46,434 bases of DNA from Kiritimatiellia bacterium (GTDB lineage: Bacteria > Verrucomicrobiota > Kiritimatiellia > RFP12 > UBA1067). The notes beneath the pieces are model-generated. The model was not told where the DNA came from, ran no database searches, and was given only the letters and a program-made list of their open reading frames with translations. The position numbers were made by a program, and so were the translations under genes. The stretch spans positions 1-46,434 of the forward strand of contig JBJEWG010000150.1 of NCBI GenBank assembly GCA_051884935.1, written 5' to 3'. This document shows positions 8,982 through 26,580 of the stretch, in pieces (the stretch's first letter is position 1; every line of letters begins with the position of its first letter).

Positions 8982-9187
8982 GTTCCCTTTAATCTATTCA
9001 ATTAGCGTCTCATCTGACGTATTCGTCTGTTTGGTTAACTACTTAGATCAGACCTTTGTATACGTCAGTGTAATTGTACCTGTTTTATATCAGCCCGTGC
9101 AAGTGATTTGAATAGAGAGGTCGCCCGGGTTACGCGCGGTGTCTGGTGCCAGGCCCCCTCCCGATCTCCGCGCGCAACACGAACCAG

Positions 9188-9675
9188 ATGCAGCGGCAGA
9201 AATCCGTGATGCTCGCGCTCGAGAACATGGGCGCGTGGGTCGCCATACAGCCGTGGAGGCTCGACCTCTGGCTCATCGACGCCGGAGGCGAACAGTTCGA
9301 GACCATCACGTCGTTCTGCCGCGCCGCTGCCAGTGGCACGAGGCCGCCGCGCTCGGCCAGAGGGCCACGAAGGACGAGGCGCTGGTGGCCGCGTTCAAGG
9401 CCCTCGCCACCGAGGCGGCCCTCAGGACGGACGCGAAGACGGCGGTCGGCTTCGTCGAATCGGCGATGGCGATCACCGACCGGCTCCAGCGGGAGCGCGA
9501 GCTCGGCCTCAAGGCCCGCGCCCAGGCGACGAGGGACGACCAGCTCAGGCTCGCGCGCGAGAAGTTCGAGGCCGCCGAGAAACGGCTCAGCGCCGCCACG
9601 AAGGCCGTCACGGACGAGACGCTCACCGACGAGCAGCGCGTGGAGAGAATCAAGGGGATCTTCGGCGTCAGATGA
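9188..9675 (+). pseudogene. Phage protein upstream of terL (small-terminase position), frameshifted near 9330
   Basis: High-GC3 coding runs in one frame from ATG 9188 (MQRQKSVMLALENMGAWVAIQPWRLDLWLIDAGGEQFETITSF). From about 9335 it runs in another frame (HEAAALGQRATKDEALVAAFKAL...RVERIKGIFGVR, stop 9675). The stop overlaps the terL start (ATGA). Confidence 0.45.
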
Positions 9676-10979
9676 GCGGGACCGAATCCATATTGGAGGA
9701 GATCCTCCTGCCCTGGCAGCGGCGGTGGGTGGCGGACCGGGCGCGCTTCAAGATCGGCATGTGGTCGCGCCAGACGGGCAAGAGCTTCTCGACCGCCTGC
9801 GAGGCCGTCACGGACTGCGCCGCCCAGCCGCGCGGCTCCACCTGCCTGTGGGTCGTCCTCTCCGCCGGCGAGCGCCAGGCCCTCGAATGGATGCAGAAGG
9901 CCCGCAAGTGGGCCGAGGCCGTGAAGGCGACCGTCGATTCCTACGACGAGGTGCGCCACGCGGCGGACGCGCTGATGGCGAAGGCGGAGATCCGCTTCGC
10001 GAACGGCGCGCGCATCGTCGCCATCCCCGCGAACCCGGACACGGCGCGCGGCTACTCCGCGAACCTCGTCCTCGACGAGTTCGCGATCCACGAGCGGCCA
10101 TTCGACATCTGGGCCGCGATCTACCCCTCCATCACCAACCCGCTCACGGGCGAGAAGAGGCTGCGCGTCGTCTCCACCCCCAAGGGGCGCGGCAACAAGT
10201 TCGCCGACCTCTGGGAGCACAACGCGAACTACTCCCGGCACAGGGTGACGATCGAGGACGCCGCGCGGGAGGGCCTGAAGGTCGATCTGGCGGCCCTGCG
10301 CGGCGGCGTGGACGACGACGACGTCTGGGCGCAGGAGTACATGTGCGAGTTCATCGACTCCACCTCGGTGCTGCTCACCTACGAGCTCATCGGCGCGTGC
10401 GAGTCGGACGCGATCCGCGACGACGGCGCGAGCCCGCTCTACGTCGGCATGGACGTGGGGCGGCGGCGGGACCTCTCGGTGATCGTGACGGCGGCGAAGC
10501 TGGGGGACGTGCTCGCGGTCGTCGCGGTGGACGTGCTCGCGAAGACGCCGTTCGCGGACCAGCTGCGCATCCTCGTCGGGAAGGCCCGCGACCGCCGCGT
10601 GCGGGGCGTCGCGGTCGACGCGACCGGGATCGGGGCGATGCTCGCCGAGGAGGCGGCCAGACAGCTCGGCGGCAAGTGCCGGGGCGTGGAGTTCACGGTC
10701 AAGTCGAAGGGCGAGATGTACGGCCTCATGCGGCGGCGCTTCGAGGAGCGCTCGATCCGCATCCCCGTCGAGCGCGTCCTCAGGGAGGACCTGCACGCGG
10801 TGCAGCGCGTCGTCTCGTCCTCCGGCGCGGTGACGTACTCCGCGCCCCGCAGCGAGGACGGCCACTCGGACCGCGCGGCGGCGCTCGCGCTCACGTGCCT
10901 CGCCGCGAAGGGCGGCGGGGACTACGTGGCCCCGTTCGCCGCCGGGGGCGTGCACAACCCGGACAGGAGGAGGATCTGA
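9672..10979 (+). CDS. terL: Terminase large subunit
   Basis: Walker A-like WSRQTGKS, Walker B-like NLVLDEFA, and a C-terminal RNaseH-like nuclease (YVGMDVGRRRD, GHSDRAAALAL). ATG 9672 overlaps the upstream stop. Confidence 0.85.
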   Translation: MSGTESILEEILLPWQRRWVADRARFKIGMWSRQTGKSFSTACEAVTDCAAQPRGSTCLWVVLSAGERQALEWMQKARKWAEAVKATVDSYDEVRHAADALMAKAEIRFANGARIVAIPANPDTARGYSANLVLDEFAIHERPFDIWAAIYPSITNPLTGEKRLRVVSTPKGRGNKFADLWEHNANYSRHRVTIEDAAREGLKVDLAALRGGVDDDDVWAQEYMCEFIDSTSVLLTYELIGACESDAIRDDGASPLYVGMDVGRRRDLSVIVTAAKLGDVLAVVAVDVLAKTPFADQLRILVGKARDRRVRGVAVDATGIGAMLAEEAARQLGGKCRGVEFTVKSKGEMYGLMRRRFEERSIRIPVERVLREDLHAVQRVVSSSGAVTYSAPRSEDGHSDRAAALALTCLAAKGGGDYVAPFAAGGVHNPDRRRI

Positions 10980-12499
10980 TGGCGAAGCGCGAGAGGAGGA
11001 CGGCCGCGCAGGCGTGGCTGGAGCGGATGAACCCGCTCGCGGGGCTCTCGATCCGCGAGGCGCAGGGCATCTTCGACGCGGCGCGCGACGGCGACACGCA
11101 GCGGCTGCACTGGCTCTTCCAGGAAATCGAGGCGGCGAACCCGGCGCTCCTGGTGTGCGTGGAGCGGCGCGCGAGCGCCATCGCGGGGTTCCGGTGGACG
11201 GTGAGCGAGATCGCCGCGCGGGACGGCGCGCTCGCCGCCGAGCAGAAGGACGCCGCCGAGCGGTTCCTCCGCGGCATCGACAACTTCGAGGACGCGCTGG
11301 AGCACCTGGACCTCGCGTTCTTCCGCGGCTTCGCGCACGCGCAGCCGGTGTGGGAGGCGGACGGGACGGTGAGGGAGATCGTCCTCCTCGACTCGTGGAA
11401 GTTCGTGCGCCGGGACGGCGAATGGTACTACAACCCTGCGTGCACGGGATTCAGCGAGGCCGACATGCAGCCGACGGACCGGTGCGGGCTCATGAGCGTC
11501 GTCCGGCGGCGCCCGGTGGACTACCCCGCGCTCGGGATCCACATCCGCATGGCGGTGGGCTCGCGCGACTGGGGCCGGTTCCTGGAGCGCTACGCCCTCC
11601 CGAAGCCCGCGGTGTTCATGCACCCCGGCGCGACCGCCGAGCAGCGCGCGGACTACCTCGCGGGCGCGCAGGCCGTCGAGAACGGGCAGGTGAGCGTGTG
11701 GCCGAACGGGGCGTCGCTCACGGACTTCGCGGGCGGATCGCGCGGCACGGACCCCTTCTCGGCGTTCGTGGAGCACCAGCAGAGGCAGATCGTGCTGCTG
11801 GCGACGGGCGGCACCCTGATGAGCCTCGCGGAGGCGGGGACGGGGACGCTCGCGGGGGGCGCCCAGAGCGAGGTGTGGGAGTCCATCGTCGCGCGGGACG
11901 CGGCGGTGGTCGCCCAGGCGGTGCGGCGCGCGATGCTGCTGCCGTTCCTCGCGCGCGCCTTCCCCGGGCGGCCCGCGTGCGTGGACTTCGCCTTCGACTT
12001 CGCAAAGCCCCCCTCGCCGAAGGAGGTCTTCGACACCGCTGCGGTCGCGCGGCAGGCGGGGTGGTCCATCGACCGCGGCCAGCTGGAGGAGCAGACGGGC
12101 TACACGCTCGAACGGGACGCGCCGGCGGCGCCCGCGCAGCCCCCCGCGCTCCTCAACAAGGCCCACGCGCCGGCGGACGATCCAGCCGAACCGCCGGCCA
12201 CCGCGCAGGCCGTCCTCGCCGAGATCGCCGCCATGATCCTCGACGGTTCAACCCCCCTTGAAGAGGCCTTGAAGGAGGCCCAGAGGAAGCTCGAGGCCAT
12301 CGACCCCTCCCTCCTCGCAGCCGACCTCGAAAAGGCGATCGAGGAGGCCATGTTCAAGGCCGCCGCCGCCGCGTCGGAACGCGCCGCCACCAACAAGACC
12401 GACGCCAACGGCATGGAGCACGCCGAAGCCGGCGGCGGCGACGGCGAAATCACGCAGGAACAGGCCGAGCGAATCTACGAGGAGATGATGGGCGAATGA
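10979..12499 (+). CDS. Portal protein, Mu gp29/DUF935-like
   Basis: 506 aa directly after terL (TGATG overlap). Sequence resembles the DUF935 family as I recall it. It is embedded in an artefactual 1117-aa track ORF. Confidence 0.8.
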   Translation: MAKRERRTAAQAWLERMNPLAGLSIREAQGIFDAARDGDTQRLHWLFQEIEAANPALLVCVERRASAIAGFRWTVSEIAARDGALAAEQKDAAERFLRGIDNFEDALEHLDLAFFRGFAHAQPVWEADGTVREIVLLDSWKFVRRDGEWYYNPACTGFSEADMQPTDRCGLMSVVRRRPVDYPALGIHIRMAVGSRDWGRFLERYALPKPAVFMHPGATAEQRADYLAGAQAVENGQVSVWPNGASLTDFAGGSRGTDPFSAFVEHQQRQIVLLATGGTLMSLAEAGTGTLAGGAQSEVWESIVARDAAVVAQAVRRAMLLPFLARAFPGRPACVDFAFDFAKPPSPKEVFDTAAVARQAGWSIDRGQLEEQTGYTLERDAPAAPAQPPALLNKAHAPADDPAEPPATAQAVLAEIAAMILDGSTPLEEALKEAQRKLEAIDPSLLAADLEKAIEEAMFKAAAAASERAATNKTDANGMEHAEAGGGDGEITQEQAERIYEEMMGE

Positions 12500-12666
12500 G
12501 CGCGCGCTGCCCACAGGACGGCGGCTTCGTCGGCGACGCCGGCTGCACGCACCCCAACCACGAGCACAGCGCGCTCGTGAAAAGGTTGGGGGGCCTTCCG
12601 TCTGCCCCCGCCGATTCCGACGCTACTGGTGAACGGCCCATGGCTTCGCGGCGGAACCGGCGGTGA
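12496..12666 (+). CDS. Short ORF after the portal gene, possibly the remnant 5' end of a replaced gene
   Basis: ATGA overlap with the portal stop. The first 28 codons (MSARCPQDGGFVGDAGCTHPNHEHSALV) have near-100% GC3; composition then collapses. Confidence 0.25.
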   Translation: MSARCPQDGGFVGDAGCTHPNHEHSALVKRLGGLPSAPADSDATGERPMASRRNRR

Positions 12667-12697
12667 TTGTACCACATCAAACCCGGACGGACAACCA

Positions 12698-13264
12698 CTA
12701 GAGGAAAGGAAAGATCAAATGATCACCTGTACGCTTTGCGCAATACTTGCGGTACTCGCCGCCGAGTGCCTTCTCGCACTTTCGTACGTCGTCGTCCGTC
12801 GCGTCCTTGCCGAGCGTGACGGACATGAGCACGTCCCCGAAACTCTCATGGTCGGATTCCAGGCCCTCGGCGATCAGACGTTTGCACTGCCGCCCAATGC
12901 GGGCGTGAAACTTCGTTTCGTCGGGAAGCTCGACGAAGAACGAGTGGAGCTGGTCGGGGTCTACGCCCCTGAAGCCATCGAACGGAACGCGGAGTGTGGC
13001 CGCATCGCCCGGCTCAATCCCCACCACCGCTGGTTCCCCTTTGAAGTCCACAGGTTCGACCTCGACGAAATCCCCGTCCAGACAGTGGAGATTTGCTCCT
13101 ACGGTCCTGATGGACACGGTCCTGCGCCCGCGATTATGGATCCGGAGCGCGACCACTTCGTATATCCCGCCGTCTCGGATGAGAACGAGCGCGCGCCTGA
13201 CGGAAAGCGCGACGCGGGCGGCTCTGGGCGGAACCCCGTTCAAAACCTCCGCCAAGGCGTTCAA
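12698..13264 (-). CDS. Reverse-oriented hypothetical protein (moron candidate) inside the head module; competes with antisense + ORF 12720-13360
   Basis: 188-aa ORF (TTG start) with somewhat better Lys/Asp/Gly/Glu codon choice than the + ORF. However, the + ORF has a GGAAAGGAAAG ribosome-binding site and a TAATG junction to the next gene. Unresolved. Confidence 0.4.
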   Translation of the reverse strand: MNALAEVLNGVPPRAARVALSVRRALVLIRDGGIYEVVALRIHNRGRRTVSIRTVGANLHCLDGDFVEVEPVDFKGEPAVVGIEPGDAATLRVPFDGFRGVDPDQLHSFFVELPDETKFHARIGRQCKRLIAEGLESDHESFGDVLMSVTLGKDATDDDVRKCEKALGGEYRKYCAKRTGDHLIFPFL

Positions 13265-13359
13265 AAACGCGCGGCGCGCTCCGGGCGGGCGCGGAGACGG
13301 CGGGCGCGCGGACGCGCCACAGGGGCGTTTTCGGCGGTCTGCGGAGAGGGGGGCGAATA

Positions 13360-14241
13360 ATGAAGGCTGACGGCAAAGGCCTCCCGGAGGCCGTGAAGGC
13401 GGGCGACGTCCTCGCGGGCGTGCTCATCTGCCCGTTCGGCGAGTTCCCGCACGGGGAGACCATCCAGGTGTGCGACCACGACGCCTTCGTGCGGCTCGTC
13501 GCCCGGTGGCGCGTCGCCGGCGCCAAGGAGGTCCTCTGCGACTTCGAGCACGCGAGCGAGGTGGACCGGGTGGACTCGGACACGCGCGCGGCGGCGTGGA
13601 TCGCGAACCTCGCCGTGTCGAGGGACGGCCTCGTCGGCGACATGAAGTTCACCGACGAGGGCGCGGCGGCGGTCTCGAACCGGCGCCTGCGGTTCCTCTC
13701 GCCCGTGTGGACGCTCGGCCCCGACGGCCGGCCCCGGTCGCTGCGGTCCGTCGCGCTCACGAACCGCCCCAACATCCACGGCGAGCCCGTCCTCAACAAG
13801 GAACCCGCTTCCAACCAGAACCCAAAACCCGAAAAGGAGAACGCGAAGATGGAGAAGATCAAGGAGCTGCTGGGCCTCGCGCCCGGCGCGACCGACGAGG
13901 AGGTCCTCGCCGCCGTGGGGCGGATGCGGGACGAGCTCGCCGAGGCGCGGAATGAGAGGGAGGCCGCCGAGGCCGAGGCCTTCGCCGAGGAGAACAAGGC
14001 GAAGTGCAGCAAGGATGCGCTGAAGGGCGCCTACCTCATGAACAAGGAGGCCGCGAAGGCGCTCGTCGCGGGCATCCCGGCCGCCCCGGCGAAGGCGGAG
14101 GCCCCGGCGCAGGTGCTCCTCAACAAGGGCGGCGCCGCGACGCCGGCGATCCCCCGCGCGGGCGACCCGCGCGCCGAGATGGCCGCGCTGCCCGCATCGA
14201 AGCGCGCCGCGTACTACGAGGCCCACAAGGGCGAATTCTGA
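13360..14241 (+). CDS. Mu gpI-like prohead protease fused to a coiled-coil scaffold region
   Basis: N-terminal motifs CPFGEFPH, DFEH and AAWI resemble the Mu-like prophage protein I family. The C-terminal half is an A/E/K-rich coiled coil. Confidence 0.8.
   Translation: MKADGKGLPEAVKAGDVLAGVLICPFGEFPHGETIQVCDHDAFVRLVARWRVAGAKEVLCDFEHASEVDRVDSDTRAAAWIANLAVSRDGLVGDMKFTDEGAAAVSNRRLRFLSPVWTLGPDGRPRSLRSVALTNRPNIHGEPVLNKEPASNQNPKPEKENAKMEKIKELLGLAPGATDEEVLAAVGRMRDELAEARNEREAAEAEAFAEENKAKCSKDALKGAYLMNKEAAKALVAGIPAAPAKAEAPAQVLLNKGGAATPAIPRAGDPRAEMAALPASKRAAYYEAHKGEF
13849..14241 (+). CDS. Nested in-frame scaffold ORF (Mu gpZ-like arrangement)
   Basis: Internal in-frame ATG at 13849, preceded by AAGGAG at 13834-13839, exactly at the start of the coiled-coil half (MEKIKELLGL...). 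Confidence 0.4.
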   Translation: MEKIKELLGLAPGATDEEVLAAVGRMRDELAEARNEREAAEAEAFAEENKAKCSKDALKGAYLMNKEAAKALVAGIPAAPAKAEAPAQVLLNKGGAATPAIPRAGDPRAEMAALPASKRAAYYEAHKGEF

Positions 14242-14269: not shown

Positions 14270-15148
14270 ATGGCACTCACAGCACCCGGCCTGACGCTCT
14301 CCATCGAGGCGCTCTTCGGCCACATCAAGCCCCAGCTGGACGTCGTCCGCCGCATGGGCTTCACCGACTTCTCGAAGGCCGACCCCGGCATCGAGATCAA
14401 GCCCGGCGCGACGATCAAGTACCCGCTCTCGTCCGTCGACGCCGCGAGCGTCTACGACGAGTCGACGAACAACTACCTCACGGGCGGCTCGACCGCCTGG
14501 GGCACGCTCACGGCGACGCACTACCTCCAGGGCTTCGACCTCAAGGGCGTGAACATCGACGAGGGCGTGAACGCGGGCCGCATCCGGCAGCTCTTCGCGG
14601 CGCGCGCGGGCGCGGGCATCGCCTGGGCCGTCAGGAACGCGGTGAAGACGTCCCTCGACGGCGCGACCGCCTCCACGGCGGTGACGCTCAAGGCCGCCCC
14701 CGCGCTCGCGGACTACGACGCGCTCGGCGAGGGCGTCGGCTGGCTCGACAAGGCGAACGCCACGCTCGTCGTGAACGGCGCGGAGTGGGCGAAGATCAAG
14801 GGCGTCCTCCACGGCGCGCACCTCTCCGCCACGCCGGCGGCCGCCGCCGAGGAGCTCGGCTTCCGCGAGCTCGTCGTGCTCCCGGACCTGACGGCGCGCG
14901 CGGTGATCGTGCCCTTCAGCTCGGTCGGCTTCATCGCCCGCGTCCCCGCGATCGTCGCGAATTACCCCGAGTCGGGCGCGGAGACGGACGAGGACTCCGG
15001 CCTCTCCGTGGGGATCGTCGTCGCCGACGACCAGGCGAAGAACCGCCAGGTGGTGAACGCCGACCTGTGGTTCGGCGTGGCCCTCATCTCGGCGAGCGCG
15101 AACGCCACCACCTCGAAGGGCGCCATCAAGGTGGGCACCGCGAGCTGA
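14270..15148 (+). CDS. Major capsid protein (Mu gpT-like, HK97 fold)
   Basis: 292 aa, follows the protease/scaffold gene. Ribosome-binding site GGAAAGGAAAGGAAG. Very high GC3. Confidence 0.8.
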   Translation: MALTAPGLTLSIEALFGHIKPQLDVVRRMGFTDFSKADPGIEIKPGATIKYPLSSVDAASVYDESTNNYLTGGSTAWGTLTATHYLQGFDLKGVNIDEGVNAGRIRQLFAARAGAGIAWAVRNAVKTSLDGATASTAVTLKAAPALADYDALGEGVGWLDKANATLVVNGAEWAKIKGVLHGAHLSATPAAAAEELGFRELVVLPDLTARAVIVPFSSVGFIARVPAIVANYPESGAETDEDSGLSVGIVVADDQAKNRQVVNADLWFGVALISASANATTSKGAIKVGTAS

Positions 15149-15210: not shown

Positions 15211-15240
15211 ACACATCGAGGCGCGCGGCTTCAGCCGCGC
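15211..15240 (+). repeat. 30-nt hairpin-containing repeat, copy a (intergenic, after the capsid gene)
   Basis: acacatcgaggcgcgcggcttcagccgcgc. Stem GCGCGGC/GCCGCGC, loop TTCA. Matches copy d at 29 of 30 positions. A 16-nt partial copy lies at 15189-15204. Confidence 0.8.
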
Positions 15241-15258: not shown

Positions 15259-15684
15259 ATGTGGCGAAAGATCACGAAGGAGGACCTCCACGCGACCCTC
15301 TCCGAGCAGGAGATCCGCGCATTCGGCCAGACCGACGCCTTCGACGCATCCGCCGTCGAGCGCCAGGTCGCCAACACCGTCGCCGCCGTCCGCGGGTTCG
15401 TCCGCTCCGGACGCAGGTGCCGCATGTCCCCCGACGAGTCCACCCTCCCCGAGATGCTCGTCTCCCCAGCAATGGACGTCGCCGCCTTCAACCTCCTCAA
15501 GCGCTTCAACCGCGTCCCCAACGAGGCCCGGACGAAGGCCGCCGAGCGCGCCCAGGACCTCTTCGAGAGGATCGCCGCCGGCGCCGTCGTCCCCGAGGAC
15601 CACGGCGAGGAGCCCGCCGACGCGAGCCCCGCCGCCGCCGCCCCCGCGTTCTCGCCCCCCAGCCCAGTCCGCCTCCTCGACTAG
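15259..15684 (+). CDS. Head-tail connector protein, Mu gp36/DUF1320-like
   Basis: 141 aa. Starts MWRKITKEDLHATLSEQEIRAF, typical of the DUF1320 family in position and size. Ribosome-binding site GAAAGGA. Confidence 0.65.
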   Translation: MWRKITKEDLHATLSEQEIRAFGQTDAFDASAVERQVANTVAAVRGFVRSGRRCRMSPDESTLPEMLVSPAMDVAAFNLLKRFNRVPNEARTKAAERAQDLFERIAAGAVVPEDHGEEPADASPAAAAPAFSPPSPVRLLD

Positions 15685-15692: not shown

Positions 15693-16115
15693 ATGGACCT
15701 TCAGGAACTCCAGAGCCGCGTCTCCGCGCGCGTCCGCGAAATCCCCCTCCTCGTCGGCCTCCCCGTCTTCGACGAGGACAGGGGCAACGTCGTCGAGAAC
15801 GTCCGGCAGGAGATCGCGAAGTCGAGCTTCTGCGTCGTCGTCGGCGCCCTCTCGTTCACGGACGAGGCCCCCGACGCCTCCCGCTGCTACGGAACCGCCC
15901 GCGTCGCGATCTCCGTCTTCGAGGACCCCATGCTCAACCGCGCCGGCGCCGGCCGCCCCACCTTCCTCGCCGCCGCCCAGGAGATCGCCCGCGCCCTCAA
16001 GCTCTTCGACACCGGCGACGGCGTCCTCACCTCCCCCGCCATCTCCGCCGCCGAGAACGTCGGCGGGGGCGTCGTCGCGCTCACCGTCACCCTCTCCCTC
16101 AAGACCACCCTCTAG
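15693..16115 (+). CDS. Head-tail adaptor or tail terminator-like phage protein
   Basis: 140-aa ORF between the connector and tube genes with high GC3. Function inferred from position only. Confidence 0.5.
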   Translation: MDLQELQSRVSARVREIPLLVGLPVFDEDRGNVVENVRQEIAKSSFCVVVGALSFTDEAPDASRCYGTARVAISVFEDPMLNRAGAGRPTFLAAAQEIARALKLFDTGDGVLTSPAISAAENVGGGVVALTVTLSLKTTL

Positions 16116-16129: not shown

Positions 16130-17050
16130 ATGGCCACCACACGCCAGTCCATCGTCCGCGGCCCCGGCACCGTCACGTTCAACGGCGTCAGGCTCTTCGA
16201 CGCCTCCGGCGTCTCCGCCGAGATCGACTCCGCCACGGGCGAGATCCCCTCCTCCATCGCCGGGACCCTCGACGTCATCAAGACCGACCAGGTCGGCAAG
16301 GTCTCCCTCACCCCCGTCGGCAGCCTCTCCGAGGACCTCCTCGCCGTCCTCTACCCCGCCTGGGCCCGCGTCCCGGAGATCGGCCGCTCCGTCCTCGGCG
16401 CCGCCGACCAGCCCCTCGTCGTCGCCTCGAAGGCCGGCGTCAAGGTCACGTTCGCCGCAGCCGCCCTCACCAAATGCCCCGACCTCCTCCTCTCGCCGGT
16501 CAAGACCGCCTTCGGCCCCGCCGAGTTCTCCGCACTCGTCGCGAACGGCAGGCTCCCCTCCGAGGCGGGCGCCCTCCACACCGTCGCCTCCGCCGCCTAC
16601 GCCGACGGCGAGCCGCCCCGCGACGGCCTCTCCGGCTTCCACTACCAGGGCTCCTACGGCTCCCTCTCCATCCCGGACACCCTCGACGGCTGGACCGTCT
16701 CCGTCGAGCTGGGGCTCGAGCCCGTCCACACCGACTCGCAGGGCACCATCGACTACACCCTCTCCGGCGTGAACGTCACCGCCCGCTGCACCCCGCTCGG
16801 GCTCTCCGAGGCGCAGATCCTCGCCGCCCTCCCCGTCGGCCTCGGCCGCGGAGCCTCCCTCGCCACCGCCAGCGACCTCGTCGTCTCCGCCAAGGGCGGC
16901 CTCAAGGTCACGCTCAAGTGCGCCTCGCTCCTCACCGGCCCCCTCAACTGGGGCGCCACCGCCCTCCGCGCCGGCGAGCTCGGCTTCCGCGCGAACGTCG
17001 ATCCCGCCACGGGCTCACTCTTCGACGTCGCCCTGCAGGGGGACGAATGA
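16130..17050 (+). CDS. Major tail tube protein (non-contractile tail)
   Basis: 306 aa immediately upstream of the chaperone-position gene and the tape measure. Internal duplication (GVKVTFAAAALTKCP... and GLKVTLKCASLLTGP...). No sheath gene present. Confidence 0.6.
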   Translation: MATTRQSIVRGPGTVTFNGVRLFDASGVSAEIDSATGEIPSSIAGTLDVIKTDQVGKVSLTPVGSLSEDLLAVLYPAWARVPEIGRSVLGAADQPLVVASKAGVKVTFAAAALTKCPDLLLSPVKTAFGPAEFSALVANGRLPSEAGALHTVASAAYADGEPPRDGLSGFHYQGSYGSLSIPDTLDGWTVSVELGLEPVHTDSQGTIDYTLSGVNVTARCTPLGLSEAQILAALPVGLGRGASLATASDLVVSAKGGLKVTLKCASLLTGPLNWGATALRAGELGFRANVDPATGSLFDVALQGDE

Positions 17051-18876: not shown

Positions 18877-20684
18877 CCGTCGCCGAGAACGGGGCCATCG
18901 CGCCGCGCGCGGACGCGGCCTTCGCCTTCGCCGTGGACGGGACGCGGTTCTTCCCCCAGGCGGGCGCGCGCCTCTCGTTCGCCTCGCGCACCGCCGCGAC
19001 GCTCCACCTCCCCGGCCTCCCGCAGGGCCTCGTCGCCCCCGGCGCGGAGGTGACGGCCACCTTCAACGGAGAGACGGTCTTCCGGGGCACGGCGGAGAGG
19101 ATCGTCACGCGCCGCCGGCGCGGCCTCGTCGTCGAGGACGTGACGTGCCGCGACGCCTGGGACCTCCTTGAGCGGCGCGTCTACCGCCAGGCGTGGCGCG
19201 TCGCCGCCGCGGACGGGACGGCCGTCGAGACCTCCACCGCCCGCGTCGTCCTGAACGTGGACGCGGACGGCCTGCCCATCCCACTCGCCGAGCAGGTGAC
19301 GGAGATCTGCTCGGCGGGCGGGCTCATGGCCTCCGACGGCGGGATCCCGGCGGCGACGCTCCCCGCGGACGAGGCGCGCGACGTCACGTGCGCGGACGCG
19401 ATCCGCCGCGCCCTCCGGCTCTTCCCCCAGGTGGTCGCCGCCTACGACGCCGCCTACGACGCCGTCGCCTTCCGCGTCCCCGCCGCCGGGGACGCCGCCT
19501 ACATGGCGGGCCCGCTCCTCTCCCGCGCGACGACGCGCACGGCCCACCCCGTCGTCGGCGTGGACATCGCGACCGAGTCGGTCGACACGAGCGTCGTCTC
19601 GCCGGAGACGGGCCTCGCCGTCGCCTCGCGCGCCGTCACGCACCAGACCGCCGGGGACGTCGCATCCGACGACTGCCTCCACGTCTACCTCCCCCTCGCG
19701 GGCGGCGCGTCCTCCACCTCGTGGGAGTCGCTCGTCGTGGAGACGGAGGAGATGCCCGCCCTCCAGAACGCGCCGTTCTGGCAGCGCAAGCACCACCGCC
19801 TCGCGAACGTGCCCGCATCCGCGATCACGATCACCGAGGCCGGGCGCAGCTCCACCAAGTACGACAAGATCACCTCGAACGACGTGGGCGCGCTCCGCGC
19901 GTTCGGGCTGAACGCCGAGGTCGTCCACTGCCACTGCAAGGCGACGGTCAAAACCGCCGACGACGTGGAGGAGGAGCTCTACCTGACGATGGACTTCGCG
20001 ATGACGGACGCCTCGCCGGGCCGCCACACGCGCCAGACGGGCAGCTCCTCGACGGCGGCGGAGACGCTGCCCGAGGGGCTCGCGGCGGCCATCCTCGCCC
20101 AGCGCGGCGGCGCGGTCGAGGCGGAGGACGTCTCGATCGTCGTCGGAGAGGCGTTCCCCCGGATCGGCGACTCGTTCGGCGGGCTCGTCCTCCAGAGCTT
20201 CGACGTGGACTGCGCGACCCTCGTCGCGAACCTCCACTTCGGCCACCCGGACTACCTGACGCCGGAGGACATGCGCGACCTGCTGAACGGCTTCCGCGCG
20301 CGCGGCTCCGCCGCGAACGTCCCCCACCGCGCCGAGAGCGACCTCGGCGCCGACGCGACCCCCGTCGCGGGCGGGGTGATGCCCCTCACGACGACCGAGT
20401 TCTGCCCCGGCGTGAAGGCGAAGACCACCGTCAAGTCGTCGAGCGGCGGCGGCTCGATCGTGCTCGACGCGGCGGCGGTGGGCGCCGGGAAGTCGCTCGC
20501 CGTCCGCGAGCTCACCTACACCCCGTCCGGCGGCTCCGCCACGACGCTCAAGGTGCTCGCGGAGGATGACGTGGAGCTCCCGCCGGGCGGCGGGGGCGGC
20601 GCGGAGCACGCCGCCGAGCCGGACACGAACGCGACGTTCACGGAGAGGGACGGCAAGATCGTGGTGGGGGTCTACTACCTATGA
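18873..20684 (+). CDS. Distal tail or tail hub protein
   Basis: 603 aa. GTG start overlaps the tape-measure stop (GTGA). Function inferred from position. Confidence 0.55.
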   Translation: MTVAENGAIAPRADAAFAFAVDGTRFFPQAGARLSFASRTAATLHLPGLPQGLVAPGAEVTATFNGETVFRGTAERIVTRRRRGLVVEDVTCRDAWDLLERRVYRQAWRVAAADGTAVETSTARVVLNVDADGLPIPLAEQVTEICSAGGLMASDGGIPAATLPADEARDVTCADAIRRALRLFPQVVAAYDAAYDAVAFRVPAAGDAAYMAGPLLSRATTRTAHPVVGVDIATESVDTSVVSPETGLAVASRAVTHQTAGDVASDDCLHVYLPLAGGASSTSWESLVVETEEMPALQNAPFWQRKHHRLANVPASAITITEAGRSSTKYDKITSNDVGALRAFGLNAEVVHCHCKATVKTADDVEEELYLTMDFAMTDASPGRHTRQTGSSSTAAETLPEGLAAAILAQRGGAVEAEDVSIVVGEAFPRIGDSFGGLVLQSFDVDCATLVANLHFGHPDYLTPEDMRDLLNGFRARGSAANVPHRAESDLGADATPVAGGVMPLTTTEFCPGVKAKTTVKSSSGGGSIVLDAAAVGAGKSLAVRELTYTPSGGSATTLKVLAEDDVELPPGGGGGAEHAAEPDTNATFTERDGKIVVGVYYL

Positions 20685-21709
20685 TCGGCGCGCGCGACCA
20701 GTACGCCTTCGTGGACCTCTCGCAGGTCCCGGAGATGCGGATCGACGGCGGAATCCTGCCCGCGCGCGACGTGGCGGCCGACGGCTCGTGGCGCGTCCTC
20801 AGGGGCGAGGACGCGGCGTTCCTCCAGGAGGCCGCGCGCGAGCGCGTCCAGGCCGCCACCGGCGCGACCGTCCCCCCGCACGCGATGACGCGCGTCCTCT
20901 CGGCGGACCGCATGGAGGACGCGCGCGGGCGGCTCGCCGCCTGCGCCTCGCTCCACGGCTACTGCAAGGACCCGCCGGAGGACGCCCAGGCCATCGACGG
21001 CCTCGACGCCTTCGCGACGGCGGCGACGGCCCACGGCCTCGCGTGGAGCGACGGGGAGCCCGCGCTCCCGGCCTTTGGCGCGTTCCGCGCGCTGCGGGCG
21101 GACGACGTGCGCGCGCTCTTCCGCGCCGTCTCCCGCCTCCGGCAGTTCGAGGTCCACGGCGCGCCGTTCGGCATTTCAAACGGGGCGGGCGCGGAATACG
21201 CCGTCGAGCTCCACGAGGAGAGGCCGGGCGCGAACGCGGCGGCGAGCGCGCCGCCCCTGGGGCTCGTCGAGCACGTCTGCGACGACGCCTGGCGCGGCAC
21301 GAGCCGCGAGGAGGTGTGCTTCGCGCGCGACGCCGTCGTGGCGGGCGGCGACTGGTCGCTCACCGTCCCGGAGGCCGCGCGGCCGTGGATCGCCTCCGTC
21401 CGCGCATTCGTCCGCCTGCGCTACGCGTCCGTCGAGACGCCGCCGGGGGGCGCGGCGGCGGAGACCTCGGACTACATCGTCGCGCCCGTCGAATCCGCGT
21501 TCTCGGACGGGGTGTGCGCGGTCGCGCGCGCGTCCCTCGTCGATGCGGCCCAGGCGGCGCGCGCCCGGCGCGGCTACGTCCCGCGCGCCCTCGGAAGCGG
21601 CTGGAGCCAGGTGAACCGCGTCTCGGCGGACGGCCTCTCGTTCATCTGCTCGCTCACCGGCCACACCGACTTTTCCGGCATCGGCTGGACCTGGCAGCCG
21701 AACAACTGA
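20681..21709 (+). CDS. Phage tail protein, unknown function
   Basis: 342 aa. ATGA overlap with the upstream gene. High GC3. Confidence 0.5.
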   Translation: MIGARDQYAFVDLSQVPEMRIDGGILPARDVAADGSWRVLRGEDAAFLQEAARERVQAATGATVPPHAMTRVLSADRMEDARGRLAACASLHGYCKDPPEDAQAIDGLDAFATAATAHGLAWSDGEPALPAFGAFRALRADDVRALFRAVSRLRQFEVHGAPFGISNGAGAEYAVELHEERPGANAAASAPPLGLVEHVCDDAWRGTSREEVCFARDAVVAGGDWSLTVPEAARPWIASVRAFVRLRYASVETPPGGAAAETSDYIVAPVESAFSDGVCAVARASLVDAAQAARARRGYVPRALGSGWSQVNRVSADGLSFICSLTGHTDFSGIGWTWQPNN

Positions 21710-21735: not shown

Positions 21736-22594
21736 ATGGCAGACGAGGAGAACGCGGCGGCGGTGCCGCTCAGGTGGACGGTCGAGACCTCCCGCGCCCA
21801 GGCCGCCCGGTTCGAGGCCTTCCGGGGCGAGACGCTCGCCCTTGAAGCCACGCTGAAGACGTATGGAAACCCCCTTGAAACGGACCTGAAACCGTCTCTG
21901 CACTGGCAGACGCCCGGGATGGGGGACGCGTGGTGGACGGCCCCCGCGACGGCGGAGGGGGGCGTGCTGCGGGCCGCGTTCACGCCCGAGATGGACCCCG
22001 GCGCGCCGATGGTCGTGGGCTTCATCGGCGTTGCGGGCGGGATCTGGCGCGCCGCGTTCGCGATCCGCTTCCGCCACGCCCCCGGCGCGCACCCGAACGA
22101 GATCGACCTCCCCCCCGCGCGAGATCGACTTCGCGACGGTCGTCGTCCGCAACGCCCCCTGGGCCACCCCCGCCGACGTCGCCGCGCTGACGTCCGGCAA
22201 GCTCGACAGGGCCGACGTGCGCTACAGGCTGCACGAGGTGGACCTGGGCGGCTACATCAAGCTTCTCGAAGACCGCGCAGTCAACGTGTTCTCGTCGTCC
22301 GAGACGGTCAGGGTCACGCCGCCGCGCCCGTCGGAAGGCGGACGCGCGCGCGACCTGCTCGTCGTCGCGACGCTCTCCAACGGCGCGGGCGTCACGTTCG
22401 ACGTCAACGACGATATGGTCTGCCTCGTCAGCTACGTGACGGAGGACGCGGACGCGCTCGCCGCCGAGGACGGAATCAACGTCTACTCGCTCACCGAGAT
22501 CATGCCGGCCACGGCTGACCATCGCGCGATGTTCCTCGTCGCGCGCAGGACCGTGGCCGAATTCGACCCGATGACAACCCCAGCGGAGGCCTGA
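21736..22594 (+). pseudogene. Tail-region protein interrupted by a +1 frame change at a C7 homopolymer
   Basis: High-GC3 coding switches frame exactly at CCCCCCC (22110-22116). A C6 tract would read ...HPNEIDLPPREIDFATVVVRNAPW... as one protein of about 285 aa. GGAGGAG ribosome-binding site before ATG 21736. Confidence 0.6.
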
Positions 22595-22596: not shown

Positions 22597-23076
22597 ATGA
22601 ACCGAGACTTTGGAAAACTGGCAGACGGCAGAATCACCTACGCCCCGCGCGTCGTCATGACGGAGGCCGGGCTCGCCACGCGCCCCACGGCCGCCGACTA
22701 CCTCGCGGCGGGCTATAAGCGAATCATCGACACGCCGCCGCCCGTCGAGGCTGGCGGCTTCAGCCGCCCATCCGGCTGGCTCGAAGCCGCCGATACCATT
22801 ACCCGCCGGTACGAGACCGTCGCGGCGCCGCCGCCCGCGCCGCGCGTCTTCTCGAAGCTGAAGTGCCACCTCGCGCTCAAGGCCGCCGGGCACTGGCCCG
22901 CAGTCAAAGCGTGGCTGGAGGCGAACGACCTCTGGGACGCCTTCCTGCTCGCGCAGGACGTCCGCGAGGACGACGAGCAGTTCACGGCGGGCGTCGCCGC
23001 GCTGAAGGCATCTCTCGGCCTCTCCGACGACGACGTGGAGAAACTGCTCGCCGCGTGCGTGCTGGAGGGCGCGTGA
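22597..23076 (+). CDS. Phage protein, unknown function (tail-fibre-accessory position)
   Basis: 159-aa ORF. Contains hairpin repeat copy b at 22742-22769. Confidence 0.5.
   Translation: MNRDFGKLADGRITYAPRVVMTEAGLATRPTAADYLAAGYKRIIDTPPPVEAGGFSRPSGWLEAADTITRRYETVAAPPPAPRVFSKLKCHLALKAAGHWPAVKAWLEANDLWDAFLLAQDVREDDEQFTAGVAALKASLGLSDDDVEKLLAACVLEGA
22742..22769 (+). repeat. Hairpin repeat, diverged copy b (inside a CDS, in a different reading frame from copy c)
   Basis: ccgtcgaggctggcggcttcagccgccc. Hairpin GGCGGC-TTCA-GCCGCC. Shares tcgaggc..gcggcttcagccgc with the other copies. Confidence 0.5.
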
Positions 23077-23077
23077 G

Positions 23078-23773
23078 ATGCTGATCGGTTCGAGACTGTC
23101 CATGACGGGCGGCGGCGCCGCCGCCAAGACGAGGCGGTACGCGGAGTACTATCTCAGAATCGCGGACGGCACGATCAAAGAGATATGCGACGAGGACACG
23201 ACGATAATCGGAGATTATGTGTTCCAATATTTAAACAAACTCGCGCGTGTGGACTTCACGAACTGCACGACAATCGGCAAATATTCGTTCAGCGAATGCA
23301 CCAGCCTTGCGAGCGTGGACTTTCCGAACTGCACGTCCATCAACCAAAGTTCGTTCAGCGGCTGCACCAGCCTTGTAAACGTCAACATTCCGAAAATCTA
23401 TTCGGTCGGCAACAGGTCGTTCATCGGCTGCACCAGACTTGCGAGCGTGGACTTCCCGAACGTCACATACACGAACATCTACGCGTTCAGCGGCTGCACC
23501 GGCCTTACGCGCGTTAACATGCCGAAGTTGTGGGATATTAGTGAAAACTCGTTCAGGAATTGCACTAAACTGAATCTGCTCCGCATGGACGGGATATCGG
23601 AAGTGACGACGTTGTCCAACACAAACGCATTCTATAACACGCCTTCGACGATGAGGATCGTCGTGCCGGACGCGCTCGTGGACGCGATGAGGGCCGCGCC
23701 GAAATGGAGCGACTACGCCGACCGCATCGTCGGCGTGACGGAATACGACGCCGCGAACGGAGGCGCCCGATGA
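23078..23773 (+). CDS. BspA-type leucine-rich repeat protein (likely receptor-binding or adhesin module)
   Basis: Five tandem 22-23-aa repeats: FSECTSLASVDFPNCTSI, FSGCTSLVNVNIPKI, FIGCTRLASVDFPNVT, FSGCTGLTRVNMPKL, FRNCTKLNLLRMDG. GC is clearly lower than in neighbouring genes. Confidence 0.75.
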   Translation: MLIGSRLSMTGGGAAAKTRRYAEYYLRIADGTIKEICDEDTTIIGDYVFQYLNKLARVDFTNCTTIGKYSFSECTSLASVDFPNCTSINQSSFSGCTSLVNVNIPKIYSVGNRSFIGCTRLASVDFPNVTYTNIYAFSGCTGLTRVNMPKLWDISENSFRNCTKLNLLRMDGISEVTTLSNTNAFYNTPSTMRIVVPDALVDAMRAAPKWSDYADRIVGVTEYDAANGGAR

Positions 23774-24201
23774 CCGTCGCCGAATGCCGCGAGCTGCTCG
23801 CCCGCGCGCGCGCCCTCGGCCTCTCCGGGGCCGGCGAGGCCGCCGCCCACCCCGTCGAGTGCCTCGCGCGCGACTGCAACGGCATCGGCCCGGAGTGGCT
23901 CCCCGCACCCGCGCGCGAGCTCCTCGACCGCCTCGCCCCGGACCTCCGCCCCGCCGCGCTGGTCCACGACTTCCGCTGGTCCCACTCCGACGGCTCCCGC
24001 GCCGCCTTCGACGCATCCAACCGGGAGCTTGAGGACAACTGCGCCATCGTCGCGCGCTCCTTCCCCTGGTGGAACTGGCGGCGGTACGCCCTGCGCCACC
24101 TCGGCGTCGCCTTCGCCGACGTCTGCTCCCGCCACGGCCTCCCCGCCTACCTCATGGCGCACGCTTCAACCACAACCGAAAACAAAGGAAAACAGACATG
24201 A
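23770..24201 (+). CDS. HD-motif phage protein (DUF1353-like, phospholipase A2-like motifs)
   Basis: 143 aa. NGIGPEWL loop followed by RPAALVHDFRWS, resembling DGASIP...HDxxY of DUF1353 and the YxGxG...HDxxY logic of PLA2 enzymes. From memory only. Confidence 0.45.
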   Translation: MTVAECRELLARARALGLSGAGEAAAHPVECLARDCNGIGPEWLPAPARELLDRLAPDLRPAALVHDFRWSHSDGSRAAFDASNRELEDNCAIVARSFPWWNWRRYALRHLGVAFADVCSRHGLPAYLMAHASTTTENKGKQT

Positions 24202-24749
24202 AGAAATCCCTCGTCGCCCTCGCCGCCGCGCTCGCGCTCGCCGGCTGCACCTCCTCCACCCGCATCGAGTGGGGCGGCCGCACCGCCCTCCGCAACCCCG
24301 ACGGCTCCGTCCTCCTCGACGCATCCGGCGCCCCGCACTACGAGACCGCCCCGAATATCTACAGGGACGCCAACTGGCTCACCCGCCGCGAGGAGCGCGA
24401 CGTCTCCGTCAGCGTCAACGCCGACGGCTCCTACTCCGCCGGCATCGGCGCGCGCGTCAACGACGTCTCCACGAACGGCGTCGCCATCGTCACCGGCGGC
24501 CTCGACGCCACCACGCGCCTCGTCTCCACCGTCGCCGCCGCCTACGCCTCCATATCGGGGGGCGCGGCTTCAGCCGCGACCGTCGTTGACGTCGCCCGCT
24601 CCGTCTACAGGGCGTTCGCTTCGGCCGGCGGCGACCCCGCGAAGGCCACCGTCTCCGCCGGGGGCGGCTCCCTCGCCGTCTCCGACGGATCCGTCTGCAC
24701 CGAGTGCGACGCGGCCGGCAACTGCACCGCCGGCGCCTGCCGCGAGTGA
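24198..24749 (+). CDS. Phage-encoded lipoprotein with Cys-rich C-terminus
   Basis: Lipobox LALAGC. C-terminus SVCTECDAAGNCTAGAC. ATGA overlap with the upstream gene. Contains hairpin repeat copy c. Confidence 0.6.
   Translation: MKKSLVALAAALALAGCTSSTRIEWGGRTALRNPDGSVLLDASGAPHYETAPNIYRDANWLTRREERDVSVSVNADGSYSAGIGARVNDVSTNGVAIVTGGLDATTRLVSTVAAAYASISGGAASAATVVDVARSVYRAFASAGGDPAKATVSAGGGSLAVSDGSVCTECDAAGNCTAGACRE
24550..24579 (+). repeat. 30-nt hairpin repeat, copy c (inside the lipoprotein CDS)
   Basis: ccatatcggggggcgcggcttcagccgcga, about 26 of 30 identical to copy d. Confidence 0.7.
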
Positions 24750-24754
24750 CCGCC

Positions 24755-25948
24755 ATGACCCCGGCAGAAGACGTCCTCCGCAGGAGCCTCGCCGCCTCCG
24801 GCCTCCCGTCCGCCGGGTGGTCCGCCCTCCCGGCGGCCATCCGCGACCGCGCCTTCTTCTCCTCGCGCGTCGAGTCCGTCCGGTTCCTCGACGCCGCCCG
24901 CGCCCGCGTCGCCGAGCTCCTCGCCGGCGCCCGGAACGCCGACGGCGCCATCACCTCCCGCGCACAGGCCGTCTCGGACGTCATGCGCGCCGCGCGCGAC
25001 GCCGGAATCGCGACAGGGAAGGGCGGCCTCCAGGACCCCGGCTCCGCCGCGCGCGCCGCCCTCGTCGTCGAAACCAACGCCGCCATGGCCGCCGGACGCG
25101 CCGCCGCCGAGATCTCAAACTCCTACGGCGCCCGCCTCGCCTTCCCCGCCCAGGAGCTCGTCCGCGTCGAGGCGCGCGCCCGCCCGCGGAACTGGAGGGC
25201 GATCTGGACCGCCCGCGGCGGCGTCCTCCGCGACGGCCGCATGGTCGCCCTCAAGGGCGACCCCGTCTGGACCGCCATCTCGCGGTTCGGCCACCCCTAC
25301 CCCCCCTTCGACTTCAACTCCGGCATGGGCCTCGACGACGTCTCATTCGACGACGCCGTCGCCCTCGGCCTCATCGAGCCCTCCTACAGGCCCCCCGTTG
25401 AATCCCCCCTCAAGGCCTTCAACGACGGCCTTGAAGCCGACTTGAAGGTCGGCGACGGCCGCCTCCTGGGGGAGCTCAGGAAGATGTTCGGCGACCAGAT
25501 CCGAAACGACAACGGCGTCATCCGCTGGCGCCAGGACCTCATCCGCGACGCCTTCACCTCCGGCAAACCGTTCTCGATCAAACTCGGCGAGGCGTCCGGC
25601 GACCTCCTTTCCAGAATCCCGGCTTCGGTGCCGGCGCAGTCGCTGGCGGGCAAACCGCTCACGATCACGCAGGACTGGCTGGACCGCAAGCGGAAGGACG
25701 GGACGGACCACCGCGCGCACTTCGCCCCGATCGAAGCGCACCCGGGGGACATCCCACTCACGCTCTCCGACCTCGAACTTCTCCCGGAGATATGGCGACG
25801 ACCCGACAAGGCCGAGAAGGTCGGCAAGCACAGGATCATGCTGTCCATGGGCGCGAGCGACGGCGGAACCTACAGGGCCGTCGTCGATTACGAGGGAAGA
25901 CCTCAGCTTAAAACCTTCTACAAGGAGGGTGAAAAGAAGGGCCCGTGA
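24755..25948 (+). CDS. MuF-like minor head protein with C-terminal nuclease-like (PBECR/BECR-type?) extension
   Basis: ARAALVVETNAAMAAGRAAAE and the downstream FGHPYPPFDFNSG resemble the Phage_Mu_F/SPP1 gp7 core. The C-terminal 100 aa (DHRAHFAPIEAHPGDIPLTLSDLELLPEIWRRPD...YRAVVDYEGRPQLKTFYKE) resemble phage BECR-fold toxin modules. Confidence 0.6.
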   Translation: MTPAEDVLRRSLAASGLPSAGWSALPAAIRDRAFFSSRVESVRFLDAARARVAELLAGARNADGAITSRAQAVSDVMRAARDAGIATGKGGLQDPGSAARAALVVETNAAMAAGRAAAEISNSYGARLAFPAQELVRVEARARPRNWRAIWTARGGVLRDGRMVALKGDPVWTAISRFGHPYPPFDFNSGMGLDDVSFDDAVALGLIEPSYRPPVESPLKAFNDGLEADLKVGDGRLLGELRKMFGDQIRNDNGVIRWRQDLIRDAFTSGKPFSIKLGEASGDLLSRIPASVPAQSLAGKPLTITQDWLDRKRKDGTDHRAHFAPIEAHPGDIPLTLSDLELLPEIWRRPDKAEKVGKHRIMLSMGASDGGTYRAVVDYEGRPQLKTFYKEGEKKGP

Positions 25949-26065
25949 AGCCTTTCAAGCGCGAGGGGAAGACCGAGGTCTTCGCCCTGCATAATGCAGG
26001 AAAAGAAGCACGAGCCCGGAACGCCTCCCAGTATACCACCACCCACCCGCCAAATCAACCGCCCC

Positions 26066-26095
26066 ACATATCGAGGCGCGCGGCTTCAGCCGCGC
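26066..26095 (+). repeat. 30-nt hairpin repeat, copy d
   Basis: acatatcgaggcgcgcggcttcagccgcgc, ending 20 nt before ATG 26116. Copy a ends 18 nt before ATG 15259. Confidence 0.8.
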
Positions 26096-26115
26096 CACCA
26101 GCCCCCACGCCAGCC

Positions 26116-26580
26116 ATGCCCGTCTCCGTCTCCATCGACATCCCGCGCCTCGAAGCCTCCCGCAAGGCCGCCGAGAAGGTCCTCGGCCGCCTCTCCACAC
26201 CGGAAGCCCGCAAGGCCGTCATCGACAAGGGCAACGCCGCCCTCGTCGAAGCCCTGCGCCGCCACTTCGCCGAGCGCGAGCGCGAACCGCAGAGGACCGC
26301 CGGCTTCCCCTGGTTCGGCCAGCCACACCCAAAGAGCTACTTCTGGCGCGGCGCGCGCGGCGACTCCGTCTCCGAACGCATCGCCTACCAGTCGTCGCCC
26401 GACCGCATGGAGGGCCTCGTCTCGATCCAGTCTCCCGCCCTCGCCCACAAGCTCGACCCCAACCCGCCGCCAATCACCCCAAAGGGCGGACGCCGCTGCC
26501 TCGCCATCCCCGCCAGCCCAGCCGCCGCGTCCTGGCGCCCCATGCCCCGCGACTTCCCCGGCGGCCTCAGGTTCGCCTTC
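26116..26580 (+). pseudogene. Phage virion-associated protein, 3'-truncated at a rearrangement junction
   Basis: Plausible sequence MPVSVSIDIPRLEAS...PKGGRRCLAIPASPAAASWRPMPRDFPGGLRFAF. Beyond about 26580 the frame becomes S/A-rich antisense of the convergent coiled-coil gene, with no stop until 26811. Confidence 0.45.

Follow-up and report, generated by a model that had tools for sequence, protein, structure and literature searches.

Judged by the large terminase (TerL), the closest isolated phages to the gene cluster described here are the Mu-like siphophages, represented in the comparison by Pseudomonas phages B3 and D3112, Rhodovulum vB_RhkS_P1, Thiobacimonas vB_ThpS-P1 and Alteromonadaceae phage B23. 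The cluster lies within a 46-kb window (46,434 nucleotides, the whole stretch of DNA that was analysed), which is a single metagenome-derived contig, JBJEWG010000150.1, of a Kiritimatiellia bacterium, and it encodes phage packaging, head and tail proteins. It is probably the 17-kb late-gene block of a Mu-like transposable siphophage, a recently grounded defective prophage from which both ends have been lost, and the phage would belong to a very large and so far uncharacterised group whose hosts are Kiritimatiellae-type bacteria of the Planctomycetes–Verrucomicrobia–Chlamydiae (PVC) group.

Like the Mu-like siphophages, to which its TerL is 30–40% identical, the cluster has the head order TerS-position gene, TerL, Mu portal, gpI protease, capsid and DUF1320 protein, followed by a gene of ~300 amino acids, a gene of ~125 amino acids and a long tail gene, and it also encodes a MuF-like protein. 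Unlike the cluster, those phages are complete (33–39 kb), follow an early/lysis/late order and have, ahead of the terminase, genes for a transposase, regulators and an amidase. In the window, the MuF-like gene lies at the far right with a partner gene and not beside the portal, and the tail genes tested were without detectable sequence similarity to the siphophages, the hub gene g12, identified by its fold, apart. Escherichia phage Mu shares the portal, protease, gp36 and hub (gp44) families, and in the relatives of the cluster, as in Mu, the sequence ends in ...CA and the insertion sites vary. The tail of Mu is contractile and its early genes are collinear, whereas no sheath family was detected in the window and the early arm of the relatives is divergent.

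Gene transfer agents (GTAs) of the RcGTA type resemble the window in consisting of a head–tail block of host-like GC content without replication, integration or regulatory genes. RcGTA is a single locus conserved across an order, under purifying selection and with a complete morphogenesis set; for the block in the window no diverged copy was found at the same locus, and two of its conserved genes are truncated. A Kiritimatiellae metagenome-assembled genome (MAG), 'Ca. Marcellius', has been reported to contain a degraded or 'defective prophage' in which a large terminase and two Mu-like proteins were annotated and genes for integration, induction and propagation were lacking (PMC6920513). That region was called from annotation and is likened to the window by description, whereas the truncation of the window was established against complete relatives; its existence nevertheless weakens the statement of a preliminary description of this DNA, made from the letters alone, that neither a prophage remnant nor a GTA-like cluster had been described for this kind of genome. 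No paper on Mu-derived GTAs or on this phage group was found in the literature.

Truncated ends and missing genes

Genes were called using third-position GC (GC3) and homologs, since most long open reading frames (ORFs) are spurious at high GC, and related loci were fetched and are referred to by L-numbers. The GC content of the window is 66–75% except in a low-GC stretch at ~5600–9100, and it falls leftward of ~9125 from ~0.66–0.70 to ~0.46–0.53. Between 9139 and 26811 all coding segments are on the plus strand with overlapping or abutting junctions, and the GC3 of the cluster is host-like; the genes outside the cluster elsewhere on the contig are ordinary cellular genes. The features at the two limits of the block are:

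9125–9342, strand not assigned: orphan high-GC segment, 218 bases between the low-GC island and the truncated g01
9343–9675, plus strand: remnant of g01, the TerS-position gene; 3' ~110 codons, coiled-coil C-terminus
26116–26577, plus strand: remnant of g20, the last phage gene and conserved partner of g19; first ~155 of 243 codons

Homologs of g01 (187–199 amino acids) match the window only from residue ~81–92, corresponding to nt 9343–9373 onward, in any frame, and the N-terminal ~90 residues including the conserved motifs TRSDAWGEDL and PPSRAGWYRFL have been lost. Because the homolog match begins at 9343–9373, the left break lies inside g01 and not at the GC step at 9125. The orphan segment between these points has a coding-like GC3 in a frame different from that of g01 (peptide MQRQKSVMLALENMGAWVAIQPW... 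/ MQRQKSVMLALENMGAWVAIQPWRLDLWLIDAGGEQFE...) and gave zero matches among all fetched related loci; comparison of the flanks by tblastx returned nothing beyond high-GC noise.

At the right, g20 matches residues 4–155 of a 243-amino-acid protein with 62% identity over 26125–26577 and then ends, and the alignment places the conserved DPSxLPT motif in the missing C-terminal ~88 residues. Beyond the match the ORF runs antisense to g21, a coiled-coil gene on the minus strand, and the final 64 codons of g21 are in turn antisense to g20. Judged from these alignments, the right phage end is deleted as well, with the breakpoint at nt 26577 inside g20. A reading of g21 as a phage tape-measure gene was rejected, since its true N-terminus was without a match in any related locus and its matches were confined to sequence antisense to g20 or to coiled-coil genes.

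The genes expected of a mobile prophage were searched for with Pfam in all 150 six-frame stop-to-stop ORFs of at least 80 amino acids in 5500–28400. No transposase, integrase, helix-turn-helix (HTH) repressor or other HTH protein, lysozyme or endolysin, holin or sheath family was found in any frame of this interval. The families seen were those of the head genes, a BspA leucine-rich-repeat protein, a Schlafen-type helicase and host enzymes, together with weak P-loop/helicase matches attributable to the Schlafen protein and one isolated weak DinB_2 match. Defined phage ends joined to variable host DNA were likewise not found in the window, both ends lying beyond the truncation points.

Inside the block, TerL, portal, protease, capsid, gp36, g08–g13, g15 and g17–g19 align end to end, or nearly so, with their homologs, and sixteen conserved late genes, g01 and g20 excepted, are full length. 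Of a post-portal gene that encodes 158 amino acids in L044 and L050, the window retains 56 codons, and only the first 51 residues of the L044 protein are matched, with 57% identity. The sole true frameshift within the cluster is at a C7 tract (~22110–22116) in g14, and the reading frame otherwise changes where one gene passes into the next or at the two truncation junctions; the counterparts of g11 and g12 in relatives are two distinct genes of full length. An exact look-up of the split g14 product returned no record.

Several statements of the preliminary description can be set against these results. The single-strand arrangement with overlapping junctions, the GC step and the absence of transposase, integrase, repressor, endolysin and holin genes, for which a search with hidden Markov models had been proposed, were all borne out. 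Its limits of 9125–26580 were accurate on the right, and on the left the phage DNA starts at ~9343–9373. The 'at least three frameshifts' it counted are reduced to the one in g14, which is absent from two other samples, so that its reading of a decaying prophage remnant is upheld by the two terminal truncations and not by accumulated frameshifts.

Two deletions, whose order and timing we infer, would account for this state. One would have run leftward from inside g01, taking the left end, the early and regulatory genes and the N-terminal half of g01, and the other rightward from inside g20, taking the right end and joining g20 tail-to-tail to an unrelated, also truncated minus-strand gene. As the ends, a transposase, regulators, an intact TerS-position protein and an intact g20 are all missing, the block should be incapable of autonomous transposition or replication, and induction and packaging of its own DNA have most probably been lost. 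Grounding would have been recent, given that the interior late genes are full length and that 99.8–100% identical copies occur elsewhere; the block would now be carried passively, while its remaining genes could still act as recombination partners for incoming relatives.

The absence of mobility, regulation and recognised lysis genes is also consistent with a domesticated, GTA-like cluster, in which the host keeps and expresses the head–tail block, the N-truncated TerS-position protein permits non-specific packaging and variation of the tail fibres tunes the choice of recipients. We regard this as very unlikely. The full-length state of the sixteen late genes speaks for it, as does the fact that the retained part of g01 is the coiled-coil C-terminus adjoining TerL. 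The gene-poor structural cluster that characterises a GTA would, however, arise trivially from truncation, and the set of morphogenesis and packaging genes is incomplete, both g01 and g20 being truncated; g20, which occurs once in every relative examined, is shortened by one third, and a conserved motif has gone with the lost part. A search of the plus strand upstream of the cluster gave no sigma-70-like promoter, which is weak evidence since the host promoter type may differ.

Architecture of complete relatives

TerL of the window has 2317 relatives at E<=1e-60, many of them 72–82% identical, and where named these come from Kiritimatiellae or Lentisphaerae MAGs. Six loci (L042, L044, L049, L050, L055 and L057) share the late module of the window gene for gene, with identities of 70–81% for TerL, 53–71% for the tube, 39–64% for the hub and 68–73% for the MuF-like protein. 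Unlike the window, L044, L049 and L050 keep a left arm, and L042 and L055 continue at the right into non-coding DNA and host genes. The positions of the g17/g18 and MuF/g20 pairs differ among these prophages.

In L044, L046, L049 and L050, whose TerL is 73–81% identical to that of the window, 9–10 kb of left arm precede the terminase. This arm comprises small genes in a divergent operon, HTH_17 among them, a conserved protein of 686–717 amino acids and a TniB/AAA_22 ATPase, with DUF3164 and DUF3102 in addition in L046 and an HTH_3 protein in L049. In all four, small genes pointing rightward lie directly before TerL; homologs of g17 and g01 are among them, joined by g18 in L044 and L050. The conserved protein, of 656–717 amino acids when L002 is included, lies at L044 178–2238, L046 2851–4989, L049 1073–3226, L050 1075–3153 and L002 4–1970. 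It gave no Pfam or PDB match. Its identification as a transposase by similarity was not upheld, a PDB profile search being empty and hhalign against a Mu-like phage transposase giving E 0.0018 with a probability of 15%; we infer that it is probably the transposase.

The right end was seen in L055 and L056, which have the closest g19 (73%) and the order DUF1353 gene, small lipoprotein gene, g19 and a gene of 236–243 amino acids, to the right of which follow ~500 bp of repeat-bearing non-coding DNA and then host DNA. In the wider family, L038 and L039 are copies of one phage, identical through ...GTTACA and then with different host flanks, which on sequence comparison is a signature of transposition. 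Host sites vary also between L042, which adjoins rpmH-rnpA-yidC, and L055, which adjoins a different host gene.

None of this was found in the window. The left-arm proteins of the four complete relatives were without a tblastn match across the 46-kb window, including the ~700-amino-acid protein and the TniB-like ATPase, and the right-end sequences of L038 and L042 were absent from it. Those relatives that have enough flank are complete transposable prophages at other sites, which argues against a host-retained GTA-like cluster. The preliminary description had rested the latter on the intact core and host-like GC3; the composition is uninformative as to long residence, because complete relatives that are active, such as L044 (71% GC overall), are as GC-rich as the cluster.

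A complete phage of this group begins at the left with an arm of ~9–10 kb transcribed away from the late genes and encoding HTH regulators, the ~700-amino-acid protein, a TniB/MuB-like ATPase and DUF3164/DUF3102 proteins. In the middle come a few small genes that point rightward, among them g17/g18 and g01, the gene at the TerS position. The right part is made up of TerL, portal, protease, capsid and gp36, the MuF-like gene with g20, the genes for tube, chaperone, tape measure, hub and fibres, and the right end. The location of g17/g18 upstream of the terminase in some relatives prompted the consideration that the window might be circularly permuted; this was rejected, since L042 and L055/L056 have the DUF1353 gene and a small lipoprotein-type gene at the same right-hand position as the window, at or near an intact right end.

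The MuF-like/partner pair (g19/g20) occurs as a single copy per phage, and its position in L042, L044, L049 and L050 differs from that in the window, L055 and L057. Pairs located after gp36 encode versions of 244–256 and 195–207 amino acids, and those at the far right end versions of ~397 and ~243 amino acids; the two locations indicate that this two-gene module moves within the late region. In the more distant relatives L038/L039, positions 1–4200 contain AAA_22, DUF3164, three small genes, MuF, Phage_tail_S, protease and a gpT capsid, and no TerL or portal was visible in this 22-kb locus.

Gene content of the block and its flanks

The packaging and head genes between the remnant of g01 and the tail module are:

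9672–10979, plus strand: large terminase TerL; 435 amino acids, full length; Pfam Terminase_6N/6C
10979–12499, plus strand: Mu-type portal (DUF935); 506 amino acids, full length; Pfam Portal_Mu, 6e-32
12496–12663, plus strand: accessory-gene remnant; 56 codons, 158 amino acids in relatives
12719–13360, plus strand: g04, moron-like ORF; lower GC, N-terminal transmembrane segment
13360–14241, plus strand: gpI-type head protease/scaffold; 293 amino acids; Pfam Mu-like_Pro, 1e-30; PHROG head maturation protease
14270–15148, plus strand: g06, major capsid candidate; 292 amino acids; between protease and gp36
15259–15684, plus strand: gp36/DUF1320 head–tail connector; Pfam Phage_Mu_Gp36; PHROG head-tail adaptor
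15693–16115, plus strand: g08, at the neck/tail-completion position; 140 amino acids, full length; 71% identical to an L057 gene over its whole length

A head module of Mu type is thus present, with a gp28-like TerL (PHROG match, terminase large subunit), Portal_Mu/DUF935, gpI protease and gp36/DUF1320 identified by Pfam and PHROG matches. The portal is 51–61% identical to those of relatives; an exact look-up of its sequence returned no record, and a scan of viral contigs with it no relatives. The g04 ORF was without a counterpart in related loci. For g06 a Pfam search gave no match, and its candidacy as the capsid follows from its position and from 54% identity to the gene at the same position in L046/L047; other capsid-position genes of related loci match Phage_capsid_4.

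The tail module and the genes that follow it up to g20 are:

16130–17050, plus strand: g09, tail tube candidate by position
17047–17421, plus strand: g10, at the tail assembly chaperone position; 124 amino acids; placed by position
17425–18876, plus strand: g11, coiled-coil protein at the tape-measure position; 483 amino acids, full length
18873–20684, plus strand: g12, predicted tail/baseplate hub (gp27 / Mu gp44 / Tal-like); 603 amino acids, full length
20681–21709, plus strand: g13, tail tip protein; 342 amino acids; 32% full-length identity to the same-position 337-amino-acid gene of L042
21724–22594, plus strand: g14, fibre-like tail protein; conserved N-terminal domain, split by the C7 tract
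22597–23076, plus strand: g15; 159 amino acids; exact protein in four other samples
23078–23773, plus strand: g16, BspA-type leucine-rich-repeat protein; low GC; Pfam LRR_5, 9e-42; five 66-nt tandem repeats
23770–24201, plus strand: g17, conserved NGIGPEW...HD protein
24198–24749, plus strand: g18, lipoprotein with lipobox, conserved partner of g17; 59% identical to a 184-amino-acid L042 protein
24755–25948, plus strand: g19, MuF-like virion morphogenesis protein; 397 amino acids, full length

Pfam, PHROG and PDB sequence searches of g06, g08–g15, g17, g19 and g20 returned nothing useful. The g09 protein is 52–71% conserved in relatives and always precedes g10 and the coiled-coil gene; its assignment as a tube by similarity was unsupported by hhalign against the 309-amino-acid gene of the Rhodovulum phage or by a PDB profile search, and g10 and g11 were equally without family, PDB or hhalign support. 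Residues 1–480 of g11 align to a 497-amino-acid gene of L044.

The hub was recognised from structure. A model of g12 was computed with AlphaFold2 (AF2) on an alignment of 54 homologs, out of 186 recovered, with a predicted local distance difference test (pLDDT) score of 78.6, and was compared with the PDB using Foldseek. At E<=1e-3 there were 36 PDB matches, the best (6e-12) being hubs of contractile injection systems, and Mu gp44, MuSo2 and siphophage tail tips (phage 80alpha, Bxb1) were also matched. On the strength of this model g12 is a tail/baseplate hub.

Assignment of g19 as MuF-like comes from profile comparison and from its predicted fold. It has 543 homologs, the closest 73–75% identical and of equal length. 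Its family profile aligned to the MuF protein of Rhodovulum phage vB_RhkS_P1 by hhalign (E 1.8e-5, probability 78%, 185 columns) across the motifs GS..R..I.DTN and DPIW...YPP, and the AF2 model (pLDDT 87.7) had fold matches in BFVD at E 7e-5 to 7e-3 to proteins named 'phage head morphogenesis domain' and to minor capsid proteins. Pfam Phage_Mu_F was not matched by g19 or 18 homologs, and the model of g19 had no match in the PDB. When g19, homologs of genes in the window and neighbours from related loci, 86 proteins in total, were pooled and scanned with Pfam, the only families obtained were Phage_capsid_4, DUF1353 and Phage_tail_C. A proposal that the partner gene g20 is gpG/Phage_tail_S was rejected by hhalign against two annotated proteins.

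Of the gene identities put forward in the preliminary description, TerL, the DUF935-type portal, the gpI-type protease and the DUF1320 connector are now confirmed by Pfam, and the presence of tail proteins by the fold of g12. The MuF protein agrees with the hhalign and BFVD matches of the MuF-like g19, which lacks a Pfam match. The gpT-type capsid agrees with the position of g06 and its 54% identity to the L046 counterpart and lacks a Pfam match; tube, chaperone-position gene and tape measure agree in position and have no further support.

The invariant residues of g17 are NGIGP...HD...NC, and its link to DUF1353 is weak. Most members have a YxGxG...HD pattern, with C for Y in the window copy, which we take to be reminiscent of viral phospholipase A2 motifs. 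Most relatives carry their g17 homolog ahead of the terminase genes, where Mu has its lysis cassette; homologs of g17 and g18 occupy this position in L002–L004, L044 (7573–8645) and L050, a g17 homolog does so in L046, and the pair is seemingly fused as one ORF there (7796–8572).

A 30-nt GC-rich hairpin, ACAyATCGAGGCGCGCGGCTTCAGCCGCGC, is present on the plus strand after the capsid gene (15211–15240) and, 97% identical, after g19 (26066–26095), with weaker copies at 22740 and 24550; its role may lie in RNA stabilisation or attenuation.

In the low-GC island to the left, a minus-strand 'cargo' gene at 6976–8981 is a candidate for defence against phages, matching PADLOC PDC-S41 (E 1e-261) and containing a Schlafen group 3 helicase domain by Pfam. 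The first ~46 profile positions are in another frame (ORF 8583–8981), indicating a frameshift near 8840. A direct repeat of ~220 nt, 75% identical, flanks the island plus prophage block (6226–6445 and 27437–27656). Read on the minus strand, each copy gives MNGIVNILLKSAAQGSGF..., the N-terminus of a small protein of membrane or coiled-coil type; an in-frame stop interrupts the left copy, and the right copy is the true start of g21, requiring a frameshift near 27450. Neither copy has a relative in any related phage locus.

Copies in other samples and meaning of the locus

Fragments 99.8–100% identical to the block were found in at least six sequencing runs. Those from other samples are only 1–3 kb long and break at variable sites, and the window contig is the sole record of the full-length proteins. 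After these same-strain copies, identity drops in the next relatives to at most 82% for TerL and at most 65% for g12, and no diverged copy was found at the same locus. These records thus gave no evidence of vertical conservation, which a host-retained GTA-like cluster should show.

These data bear on whether the truncations are real, as the prophage might be complete in the genome and the contig misjoined at ~9125–9343 and at 26577. A single metagenome-derived contig that alone holds the full-length proteins, the short fragments with variable breaks elsewhere and the poor assembly of transposable phages with many insertion sites are all compatible with such an artefact. It would, however, require two independent chimeric joins between sequences in which no shared repeat was seen at the junctions, and the breakpoints fall inside conserved genes and not at the phage ends, where misjoins arising from multiple insertions are expected. 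We consider an artefact very unlikely.

Two sites vary among the otherwise near-identical copies. The g14 tract is C7 in the window and in a contig of SRR30616841, and C6, giving an intact gene of 285 amino acids, in otherwise identical contigs of SRR30616845 and SRR10097268; the difference reflects either an error of sequencing or on/off switching by strand slippage. In L054, a 99.8% identical contig, an unrelated high-GC gene (L054 836–1012) replaces g16, the two sharing an N-terminus (MLIGSR in the window, MLIASR in L054). The g16 gene is likely an exchangeable receptor-binding cassette.

Several observations weigh against a grounded defective prophage. The intact g14 in two samples is one of them, and the recent exchange of g16, at a host-range position, could point to a module still in use. 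All conserved late genes are intact save the two end genes and one accessory gene, a state that neutral decay is unlikely to keep for long. Junction-spanning ORFs were found only in the window's own contig and in no other assembly, so that both junctions rest on one contig. Finally, the ~700-amino-acid protein of the relatives has no Pfam or PDB match and aligns only weakly to a Mu-like phage transposase.

Variation at g14 and g16 in such similar copies also favours the GTA-like cluster, and the block could then be a retained, host-controlled, Mu-derived particle system in a PVC bacterium, with sequence-independent packaging, in which the poly-C switch and the g16 exchange reflect selection on cell binding; in this specific form we hold it to be less probable still than the GTA-like reading in general. 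Alternatively, a defective element might work in trans, being expressed, recombined or complemented when a related intact Mu-like phage infects the same cell or is induced in it. The abundance of relatives in similar samples, as counted for TerL, and the 99.8% identical module with another g16 in L054 fit this proposal; no helper prophage was found in the 46-kb contig, and we judge it the least probable of the explanations considered.

As a recently grounded defective prophage the block is an ordinary finding, defective prophages without ends and early genes being common. The phage group from which it comes is large and undescribed, and its presumed transposase escapes Pfam and PDB sequence searches. 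If the ~700-amino-acid protein is the transposase, complete members can look 'defective' or transposase-less to annotation pipelines, and the 'degraded prophage' of PMC6920513 may be a complete member misread in this way. The gene map and the truncation points given here are an aid for annotating such prophages in gut and environmental MAGs.

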